The position numbers and the translations under genes were made by a program. Shown one piece after another: positions 16,454 to 16,763 of a stretch of DNA of 32,608 nucleotides (position 1 is its first letter; every line of letters begins with the position of its first letter). Source of the stretch: a virus (taxonomy: Duplodnaviria; Heunggongvirae; Uroviricota; Caudoviricetes); the IMG/VR virus record IMGVR_UViG_2667527588_000004; one strand, 5' to 3'. A model generated the notes under the pieces. The model was given only the letters and a program-made list of their open reading frames with translations. It was not told the DNA's origin and searched no databases.

Positions 16454-16528
16454 TGGAGCGGGCAGCGGGAATCGAACCCGCATCATCAGCTTGGAAGGCT
16501 GAGGTAATAGCCATTATGCGATGCCCGC
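16454..16528 (-). tRNA. tRNA, anticodon UCC (Gly)
   Basis: 75-nt minus-strand sequence GCGGGCATCGCATAATGGC...TTCGATTCCCGCTGCCCGCTCCA folds with a 7-bp acceptor stem, anticodon stem TCAGC/GCTGA, loop CTTCCAA and a canonical T-arm; very close to host glyT as I recall it. Confidence 0.75.
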
Positions 16529-16531
16529 ATA

Positions 16532-16607
16532 TGGTGCCGACTACCGGACTCGAACTGGTGACCTACTGATTACAAGTCAGTTGCTCTACCTACTGAGCTA
16601 AGTCGGC
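16532..16607 (-). tRNA. tRNA, anticodon UGU (Thr)
   Basis: 76-nt sequence GCCGACTTAGCTCAGTAGGTAGAGCA...CCA; acceptor stem GCCGACT/AGTCGGC; anticodon stem ACTGA/TCAGT with loop CTTGTAA; T-stem has one A-C mismatch. Confidence 0.65.
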
Positions 16608-16609
16608 AC

Positions 16610-16686
16610 TGGACCGCCACCGGGGACTCGAACCTCGCACACTCAACTTAAAGGGTTGACGCTCTTTCCTGATGAACTGGTGACGG
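16610..16686 (-). tRNA. Atypical tRNA-like gene, anticodon loop CCTTTAA (UUU, Lys-like); possibly a pseudo-tRNA
   Basis: 77-nt sequence with acceptor stem CCGTCAC/GTGGCGG (one G-U), perfect anticodon stem TCAAC/GTTGA, T-loop TTCGAGT, 3' CCA; has C at position 33 and an A-C mismatch in the T-stem. Confidence 0.45.
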
Positions 16687-16687
16687 T

Positions 16688-16763
16688 TGGTGGCCCTTGC
16701 TGGATTTGACCCAGCGACCTGTCGATTATGAGTCGCTCGCTCTCACCACTGAGCTAAAGGGCC
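16688..16763 (-). tRNA. tRNA, anticodon CAU (tRNA-Ile2 lysidine type or Met; ileZ-like)
   Basis: 76-nt sequence GGCCCTTTAGCTCAGTGGTGAGAGC...CTCATAA...GCTGGGTCAAATCCAGCAAGGGCCACCA; resembles ileX/ileZ-type tRNAs as recalled; anticodon stem and T-loop are imperfect. Confidence 0.65.

Follow-up and report, generated by a model that had tools for sequence, protein, structure and literature searches.

The IMG/VR virus record IMGVR_UViG_2667527588_000004 (Caudoviricetes; 32,608 nucleotides, the whole of which was analysed and is called the window in the following) contains four tightly packed tRNA-like genes between the antiterminator gene Q and the first lysis gene, which raises the question of what this cluster is, where its members come from and what use a phage may have of them. 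The question concerns above all the second gene in reading direction, an atypical member with the anticodon UUU, which is called X here. As it stands, the cassette is an ordinary prophage feature; the reading that fits best is that of a tRNA supplement for rare codons with one disabled member, X, derived from a tRNA-Arg(UCU), and we regard this reading as moderately probable.

The tRNA cassette and its atypical member

In the 32.6-kb window as a whole, ARAGORN recovers exactly four tRNA genes, which all lie on the minus strand and span 16454-16763, at the very positions and with the anticodons which the initial annotation had assigned from the letters alone. The genes are the following, with the last one in the list being the first in reading direction.

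16454-16528, minus strand: tRNA-Gly(UCC) by ARAGORN; cassette slot 4; Rfam 56.8 bits
16532-16607, minus strand: tRNA-Thr(UGU) by ARAGORN; cassette slot 3; Rfam 73.3 bits
16610-16686, minus strand: atypical member X, Lys(UUU) by ARAGORN; cassette slot 2; no Rfam match
16688-16763, minus strand: tRNA-Ile2(CAU), Met(CAU) by ARAGORN and tRNA-Ile by the Prokaryotic Genome Annotation Pipeline (PGAP); cassette slot 1; Rfam 60.9 bits

As read from the sequence, the intergenic spacers amount to 3, 2, and 1 nucleotides, and all four genes encode their CCA end. Scored with the Rfam tRNA model (RF00005, gathering threshold 29 bits), the Thr, Ile2, and Gly genes pass as canonical tRNAs with E-values from 1.9e-14 to 6.8e-10, while X stays below the threshold and yields no match to this model even at E<=10 in a search of 501 nucleotides; a search of X against the other RNA families of Rfam at E<=10 returned noise only. 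Sub-threshold scores had been named beforehand as the observation that would speak against tRNA genes, and with the Rfam model this applies to X alone, which is also left unannotated by PGAP. Minimum-free-energy (MFE) folding of the single genes did not produce cloverleaves, but is uninformative here because the bona fide tRNA genes fail in the same way.

The cluster is a real tRNA gene cassette and belongs to a known class, the tRNA cassettes downstream of Q in lambdoid phages: Q, a terminator-like hairpin, the tRNA genes, and the holin gene are all encoded on the minus strand in the layout known from phage Nil3. Its placement ahead of the lysis genes, as described in the initial annotation, was borne out, the flanking genes being Q (PF03589) and a P21-type holin gene. 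The composition of the cassette (Ile2, X, Thr, Gly) is already annotated in databases, and no discussion of it was found in the searchable literature on ileZ/argN, PPompW, or lambdoid tRNA-Thr/Gly.

X can be folded into a cloverleaf with an acceptor stem of 7 bp (one G·U), a D-stem of 4 bp (one G·U), an anticodon stem of 5 bp, and a T-stem (CGAGG/CCCCG) which consists of 4 bp plus an A51·C63 mismatch, followed by the encoded CCA. Its anticodon loop is C32-C33-U34-U35-U36-A37-A38 (CCUUUAA); both C33 and the A-C mismatch in the T-stem, already remarked upon in the initial annotation, can be read directly. Among the near-universal nucleotides of tRNAs, X has C8 in place of U8 and C33 in place of U33, but it retains A14, G18-G19, and the T-loop UUCGAGU; the discriminator base is U73. 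U33 is nearly universal in tRNAs, and position 35 is of interest as well, since C35 is a major identity element for arginyl-tRNA synthetase (ArgRS). With its derived loss of conserved bases and pairs and its score below gene-finder thresholds, X shows the features of a tRNA pseudogene, and it is annotated inconsistently by gene finders, as a tRNA-Lys in some genomes and not at all in others: copies in other genomes that are 100% identical are left unannotated by RefSeq/PGAP, in contrast to the dominant allele (96% identity), which is entered there as tRNA-Lys.

Ancestry and erosion of the cassette

Among the closest described systems is the ileZ-argN-argO cassette of Shiga toxin (Stx) phages (933W, Nil3, VT2-Sakai), which shares the position downstream of Q and the terminator tR', the orientation, and the tight packing. 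The initial annotation had set the cluster apart from this set, which did not hold for its first two slots. The gene in slot 1 is the ileZ orthologue (74 of 76 positions identical to Nil3 ileZ, with the derived changes C42A and U54G), and X is a full-length homologue of Stx-phage argN with 76-80% identity. The two cassettes differ in the anticodon of slot 2 (UUU together with C33 in the window, UCG in Stx-phage argN) and in the genes behind it, because argO (UCU) is replaced in the window by copies of thrU and glyT, the latter being the fourth gene; slots 2 and 3 are thus not occupied by the two Arg tRNAs that mark the Stx-phage set. Moreover, no stx genes follow downstream in the window, where a structured region of about 200 nucleotides, a terminator, and then the holin gene are found instead.

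A still closer counterpart is a four-gene cassette of the order Ile2(CAU)-Arg(UCU)-Thr(UGU)-Gly(UCC), as represented by the IMG/VR locus L135 and present in E. coli O121 and other genomes. It has the same four slots and shares with the window the Thr-to-Gly spacer TAT, the length of the spacer between slots 1 and 2, and the anticodon stem of slot 2. In the Thr and Gly genes, the two cassettes differ only by U59G (Thr) and U11C (Gly) on the side of the window and U16C/U20C in the Thr gene of L135. The slot-2 gene has U33, C35, a perfect T-stem, and an Rfam score of about 52 bits, whereas the window gene shows U33C, C35U, U63C, and three more changes. The Arg(UCU) cassette is itself a relative of the ileZ-argN-argO set of the Stx phages.

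When IMG/VR was scanned for X-type stems that carry the Arg(UCU) loop, 105 matches at 104 loci were obtained, and 61 of these matches have the architecture Met(CAU)-Arg(UCU)-Thr(UGU)-Gly(UCC). Across these 61 cassettes, X and the Arg(UCU) gene share the slot, the anticodon stem (UCAAC/GUUGA), and the flanks, and the two differ by a change of the loop from CUUCUAA to CCUUUAA (U33C, C35U), by U63C and A26G, and by a few further loop differences. Genes that are 84-86% identical and carry the anticodon UCU occur in E. coli CFT073 and on a plasmid. The cloverleaf of the whole slot-2 family is well conserved, with 98.4% of the cells of the alignment paired and 11 of the 21 pairs changed on both sides, which was equalled in none of 500 shuffles; what remains unpaired falls mostly on pair 51-63 of the X alleles. 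On these grounds, X is a descendant of the cassette's tRNA-Arg(UCU) and not a gene of the Lys family. The two loop changes U33C and C35U removed both U33 and the main ArgRS determinant C35 and created the anticodon UUU; U63C added the T-stem mismatch, and C4U, U8C, and C11U followed in the lineage of the window.

Several other derivations of X were tried and discarded. A copy of host tRNA-Lys is not supported by any special similarity, since the genes to which X aligns end to end are argN and the slot-2 Arg(UCU) genes. Of the roles that had been proposed initially, that of a pseudo-tRNA fits best, while a suppressor tRNA finds no support: a nonsense suppressor is rejected because UUU is a sense anticodon. 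The descent from Arg(UCU) and the eroded state of the allele thus guard against misreading X as a suppressor or as a Lys tRNA captured from the host. Nor can the compensatory changes by which argN and X differ be taken as a sign of selection on X, because the closer Arg(UCU) relatives already share the stems in question, which renders the changes uninformative on X itself; none of the X-specific changes is compensatory.

How far the window copy has departed from its relatives was assessed with at least 119 X loci in IMG/VR, collected by a scan for the X anticodon arm. Among these, 96 are of the type Met-X-Thr-Gly, 13 of the type Met-X-Arg(UCU), which is represented by PPompW, and 5 of the type Met-X-Lys(UUU)-Gly. 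The dominant alleles of the four genes are as follows.

Slot 1, Ile: identical to Stx-phage (Nil3) ileZ, 110 of 121 copies; 72.5 bits (window 60.9)
Slot 2, X: with U8 and a normal D-stem, 69 of 121 copies; 44.4 bits
Slot 3, Thr: identical to thrU (76/76), 71 of 104 copies
Slot 4, Gly: identical to glyT, 67 of 105 copies; about 65 bits (window 56.8)

Relative to these alleles, the Ile, Thr, and Gly genes of the window carry one or two derived changes each. The resemblance of the Thr and Gly genes to the tRNAs of the host tufB operon, which had been noted in the initial annotation, amounts to near-identity: the Thr gene is identical to K-12 thrU at 75 of 76 positions (U59G), with unchanged anticodon arm and D-loop, and the Gly gene to K-12 glyT at 74 of 75 (U11C, which breaks the D-stem pair 11-24). 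X differs from its dominant allele by C4U, U8C, and C11U, and the scores of slot 2 in the Rfam model decrease from 50-52 bits in the Arg forms to the value of the dominant X given above and to 33.1 bits in a further X allele (L130), while the X genes of the window, of locus L036, and of PPompW give no match. Derived X alleles keep losing conserved bases, as seen from U8C in the window, a deletion in the D-stem in PPompW, and changes of G24 or C25 elsewhere. Judging from these comparisons, the window contains one copy, slightly eroded, of a four-gene cassette that is widespread, and X is eroded further there.

The host tufB operon has the order thrU-tyrU-glyT-thrT, from which the phage carries only the mature sequences including CCA, without tyrU and without host flanks, and with a spacer of 3 nucleotides in place of the 209 nucleotides between thrU and glyT in the host. 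The copies are exactly of mature length (window 16454-16607 compared with 189-548 of the host locus L005). Two further loci show other states of decay in this gene family. A relic cassette in E. coli CFT073 (L129, 1380-1700) contains a heavily degraded ileZ, an intact slot-2 tRNA-Arg(UCU) of 52.1 bits, and a degraded gene which resembles a thrU/argO hybrid, with insertion sequence fragments on its flanks. In Citrobacter amalonaticus (L127, 1-75), an argN-family tRNA has normal acceptor, D-, and T-arms, but a scrambled anticodon arm in which ARAGORN reads an "anticodon" of 2 nucleotides.

Codon supply, counter-defence, and the role of X

AUA, AGA, ACA, and GGA are the classic rare A-ending codons of E. 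coli, and a cassette of the ancestral composition reads all four of them, so its intact members fit the role of a codon supplement. Codon use was compared between 35 genes of the window and 48 genes of K-12 as odds ratios among synonymous codons (prophage versus K-12). ACA is over-used in late (1.9) and early genes (5.3) of the prophage, and GGA likewise (2.8 and 3.4); AUA reaches 1.5 in late genes, which is not significant, and 7.9 in early genes, and AGA 2.0 (again not significant) and 11.3. AAA is not enriched (0.48 and 0.75), which leaves a Lys tRNA without a rationale in terms of supply. In other lambdoid phages with tRNA genes downstream of Q, ACA bias has been offered as a rationale as well (PMC3636060). 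We infer from this that the intact Ile2, Thr, and Gly tRNAs would supplement scarce host tRNAs for the AUA, ACA, and GGA codons over-used by the prophage, and that X would be a disabled former Arg tRNA, either a pseudo-tRNA or at best a weak decoder of Lys codons, which is carried along with the cassette. That X is disabled is most likely, in view of the loss of U33, the discriminator U73, the T-stem mismatch, and the ongoing damage in its derived alleles. AGA makes up 20% of the Arg codons in the early genes of the prophage (16907-32608), with a frequency of 13 per 1000 codons as compared to 1.2 per 1000 in the K-12 sample, and the AGA-reading tRNA has been lost from the cassette of the window despite this usage.

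Several observations weigh against a codon supplement with a disabled second member. The enrichment of rare codons is greater in the early than in the late genes. The cassette is present in roughly a tenth of the complete E. coli genomes: an X-type gene of at least 90% identity occurs in about 797 records from complete E. coli genomes, at least 80% of the window segment 16300-16900 is found in 449 E. coli genomes, and some four-tRNA cassette in 603; the X-type cassette is commoner in these complete genomes than the Arg(UCU) type. Such commonness is odd for a damaged allele, unless X hitch-hikes on a successful phage. In addition, X is found with two architectures of the cassette and also in deposited phage isolates, its dominant allele has intact acceptor, D-, and anticodon stems, and its loop is invariant in more than 119 loci, though these were gathered by means of that very loop. 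No related single-step intermediates between the Arg(UCU) and X loops, i.e., U33 with UUU or C33 with a base other than U35 (including C33 with UCU), were found in IMG/VR or in the metagenomes of the Joint Genome Institute; the scans also covered other wobble bases, and one match at L128 and three metagenome matches are unrelated tRNAs. Finally, a second switch to the anticodon UUU has occurred independently in a thrU-derived gene.

The latter gene, with the changes G35U and A26G, was found at seven loci (L036, L053, L068, L072, L098, L174, and L224) in two contexts, namely with either X or Arg(UCU) in slot 2. The copy at L036 (3483-3555, minus strand) is called tRNA-Lys by ARAGORN and scores 74.2 bits in Rfam. 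Within IMG/VR, the thrU body occurs with no other altered anticodon than UUU; most matches of the underlying scan for thrU with altered anticodons are true Lys or Arg tRNA genes from other bacteria with the same anticodon arm, and the seven loci are those derived from thrU.

An alternative explanation starts from the fact that the anticodons of X (UUU) and of the Thr gene (UGU) are those of tRNAs destroyed by phage defence nucleases. The PARIS effector AriB cuts at U36AAUC/A41 (the slash marking the cleavage site), and its cleavage is blocked or impaired by any one of the changes U39A, A41C, and U16C (PMC12409363). With P2 Old, the classic anti-lambda system, lambda-infected cells die because tRNA-ThrU is cut at paired CNG motifs in its anticodon stem; tRNA-Lys(UUU) is a substrate as well (PMC12445682). 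X might be a functional and selected tRNA-Lys(UUU) on a non-Lys body, obtained from a phage tRNA-Arg by a one-base switch of the anticodon and uncuttable by AriB, P2 Old, and possibly PrrC, so that late translation would go on when the host tRNA-Lys is destroyed. At the determinants reported for these nucleases, X indeed differs from host tRNA-Lys: it reads U36AAGUU41 (G39, U40, U41), has C16, and contains no CNG in either strand of its anticodon stem (CAA/UUG), and should therefore escape both AriB and P2 Old. The abundance of the X-type cassette in E. coli, the independent UUU switch in the thrU body, and the fact that AAA is not a rare codon, which leaves a Lys tRNA unexplained by codon supply, would all suit this explanation. 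It would also suit the tRNA-Asn(GUU), the third AriB target, which is encoded together with tRNA-Thr(UGU) downstream of Q in lambdoid phages of the SfI, Sf6, and P21 types, where no codon-bias reason is seen for the Asn gene (PMC3636060). However, the seemingly resistant features of X were inherited from its Arg ancestor and did not evolve for resistance, and C33, U73, and A51·C63 argue for poor decoding and, by the general identity rules of tRNAs, for poor charging by lysyl-tRNA synthetase. The derived alleles of X furthermore go on losing conserved bases (U8C in the window, the D-stem deletion in PPompW), the thrU-derived UUU allele retains the AriB site as well as U16 and should thus be cut, and the Thr gene of the cassette has the unchanged anticodon arm of thrU, which as a plasmid-borne host gene protected hardly or not at all against P2 Old. 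A functional, nuclease-proof X is unlikely on these grounds, though its probability is not negligible. Somewhat less likely still is the extended proposal that X and the thrU-derived UUU allele represent two independent, selected nuclease-proof Lys tRNAs which arose by anticodon switches in temperate lambdoid phages. The same low probability applies to its corollary that they would, together with Thr(UGU), protect late translation from PARIS, P2 Old, or PrrC, the cassette being a counter-defence module and not an aid to codon usage.

The nuclease-resistant phage tRNAs, namely tRNA-Lys, -Thr, and -Asn of phage T5 (against AriB) and a phage tRNA-Thr(UGU) (against P2 Old), resemble X and the Thr gene of the window in that the anticodons (UUU and UGU in the window) match those of targeted host tRNAs. 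Those tRNAs stem from virulent phages, and both their resistance to cleavage and the rescue of infection were demonstrated, whereas X is known from its sequence, combines C33 with U73, and is undergoing erosion. The Thr tRNA of the window is, unlike the resistant phage tRNAs, identical to that of the host where resistance maps. The Thr and Gly genes of the window were also considered as nuclease-resistant variants in their own right and discarded, as their anticodon arms are identical to those of the host and contain paired CNG motifs in both cases (according to the rule given in PMC12445682). The Asn(GUU)-Thr(UGU) pairs of SfI, Sf6, ST64T, and P21 lie directly downstream of Q, share Thr(UGU) with the window and show the ACA bias (PMC3636060), but the partner gene is Asn and not Ile2, X, or Gly; these pairs were compared by description only.

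A related proposal would see the cassette as a whole, and Thr(UGU) above all, as counter-defence by bulk supply, in which strongly expressed extra tRNA of the thrU type would compensate for depletion by P2 Old or PARIS and rare codons would be a secondary aspect. It could refer to ThrU being the lethal target of P2 Old in P2-lambda interference and a prime target of AriB, and to the recurrence of Thr(UGU) downstream of Q in several unrelated lambdoid cassettes. Furthermore, in the Arg(UCU)-type cassette (L135 and E. coli genomes H171-H179), the Thr allele that dominates carries C16 and C20 in its D-loop, where K-12 thrU has U at both positions, and U16C impaired the cleavage of tRNA-Lys by AriB. 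In the window and the dominant X-type cassette, however, both the anticodon arm and the D-loop of the Thr gene are those of thrU, over-expressed host thrU protected little or not at all against P2 Old, and the over-use of ACA and GGA is already accounted for by the simpler model of codon supply. We consider counter-defence by bulk supply improbable. Nevertheless, Thr-UGU, Lys-UUU, and elsewhere Asn-GUU, as found in post-Q cassettes, are the tRNAs that PARIS and P2 Old destroy, and if the cassette were even in part a counter-defence system, the "rare codon" account of tRNA genes in temperate phages would need revision.

Two further roles of X can be envisaged which do not involve a Lys tRNA. 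It may be a non-decoding structural element, i.e., a processing spacer for RNase P and RNase E which assists the release of its neighbours, a decoy for nucleases or modification enzymes, or a source of small RNA. The retained cloverleaf and the spacers of 1-2 nucleotides, which couple the processing of X to that of its neighbours, would agree with such a role, and over-expressed viral tRNAs were discussed as possible competitive inhibitors in the AriB study (PMC12409363). Yet there is nothing specific to a decoy in X, other cassettes function with slot 2 occupied by an ordinary Arg tRNA, and X alleles with damaged D-arms persist, which makes a structural element distinctly improbable. Alternatively, X may be a missense tRNA which is still charged with Arg by virtue of A20 and places Arg at Lys codons, its activity being damped by C33. 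X does retain the Arg-type body and A20, and the strict coupling of the two loop mutations, with U33 plus UUU found nowhere in the searched sequences, would fit counter-selection against an efficient mis-decoder; but C35 as a major identity element of ArgRS is lost, and a benefit to the phage is not evident. We regard a missense tRNA as very improbable.

Expression elements and prophage context

The codon-supplement reading includes expression of the cassette, for which the initial annotation had proposed coupling to lytic growth via the late promoter. The features between Q and the lysis genes are listed in reading direction.

16907-17728, minus strand: Q antiterminator, 273 amino acids; PF03589 Antiterm, E = 2.6e-55; "antitermination protein" in a near-identical RefSeq prophage
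16874-16901, minus strand: putative late promoter pR', -35 TTGATT (16896-16901), 16 nucleotides, extended -10 TGgTAAATT (16874-16882); sequence reading
16807-16826, minus strand: tR'-like intrinsic terminator hairpin AACCCGCCGCCGAGCGGGTT plus T-run; terminator scan
16773-16801, minus strand: promoter-like element of the cassette, -35 TTGCGG (16796-16801), 17-nucleotide spacer, -10 TATTAT (16773-16778)
16250-16453, minus strand: highly structured non-coding stretch with three long hairpins, between tRNA-Gly and the next terminator
16231-16246, minus strand: intrinsic terminator GCCCGCTTTTGCGGGC plus T-run, 70 nucleotides upstream of the holin start; terminator scan
15946-16161, minus strand: holin S, the first lysis gene and downstream edge of the cassette region; PF04971 P21 holin, E = 1.4e-35

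The putative pR' begins 6 nucleotides past the stop codon of Q, as read from the sequence, and its -10 region presumably resembles that of lambda pR'. The hairpin at 16807-16826 is an element of the same kind as the one which the annotation of Nil3 places between q and tRNA-Ile under the name "late terminator tR'", but lies about 44 nucleotides upstream of the cassette, as compared to about 250 nucleotides upstream of ileZ in Nil3. Downstream of this hairpin, the TATTAT of the promoter-like element ends 9 nucleotides ahead of the first tRNA base and recurs at the identical position in 49 of 62 distinct upstream contexts, with TTGCAA, TTGCAG, or TTGCGG as the -35 hexamer (TTGCAR in the general form, at a distance of 17 nucleotides); the Stx-phage cassette shares this element as TTGCAG-17-TATTAT. 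Even between contexts with a spacer identity below 60%, the hexamers agree with an identity of 0.90. This conservation suggests that the cassette has its own sigma-70-type promoter downstream of tR', and its expression need then not hinge on Q alone. The late promoter is accordingly retained as one route, but probably not as the sole one: the cassette would be transcribed from its own promoter and, after the action of Q, as a part of the late transcript too, and the tRNAs would be freed by RNase P and 3' trimming with the CCA already encoded in the genes.

Downstream of the Gly gene, the 232 nucleotides from 16222 to 16453, which include the terminator, fold with an MFE of -83.1 kcal/mol as compared to -55.5 ± 4.2 kcal/mol for shuffled sequences (z = -6.6). 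At more than 30 distinct loci, the structured stretch follows the Gly gene with a conservation of 93-100%, and a variant of 79% identity retains the hairpins via AU>UA, UA>GC, and UA>CG changes; the terminator at 16231-16246 likewise shows a compensatory GC>AU change in related loci. No Rfam family matches the stretch 16222-16453, which may represent a co-transcribed small RNA or an element for processing or stability.

The window as a whole is an apparently complete lambdoid prophage adjoining rspB, i.e., at the Qin site of K-12, with the order integrase, dicB/DicF, cI/cro-like genes, replication, hokD/sok, rusA, Q, lysis, terminase, head, and tail. The sok antitoxin RNA (20126-20300, minus strand; 115 bits) next to hokD and the small RNA DicF (27803-27854, plus strand; 72.5 bits) next to dicB are standard in prophages of the Qin type. 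Three consecutive open reading frames of 218, 415, and 363 amino acids at 20729-23731 (minus strand) have no Pfam match, but match the PADLOC candidate-defence models Hp3 (3.8e-11), Hp2 (9.6e-11), and Hp1 (5e-41), respectively; in view of their location between hokD/sok and the replication genes, they probably represent a prophage-borne candidate defence operon.

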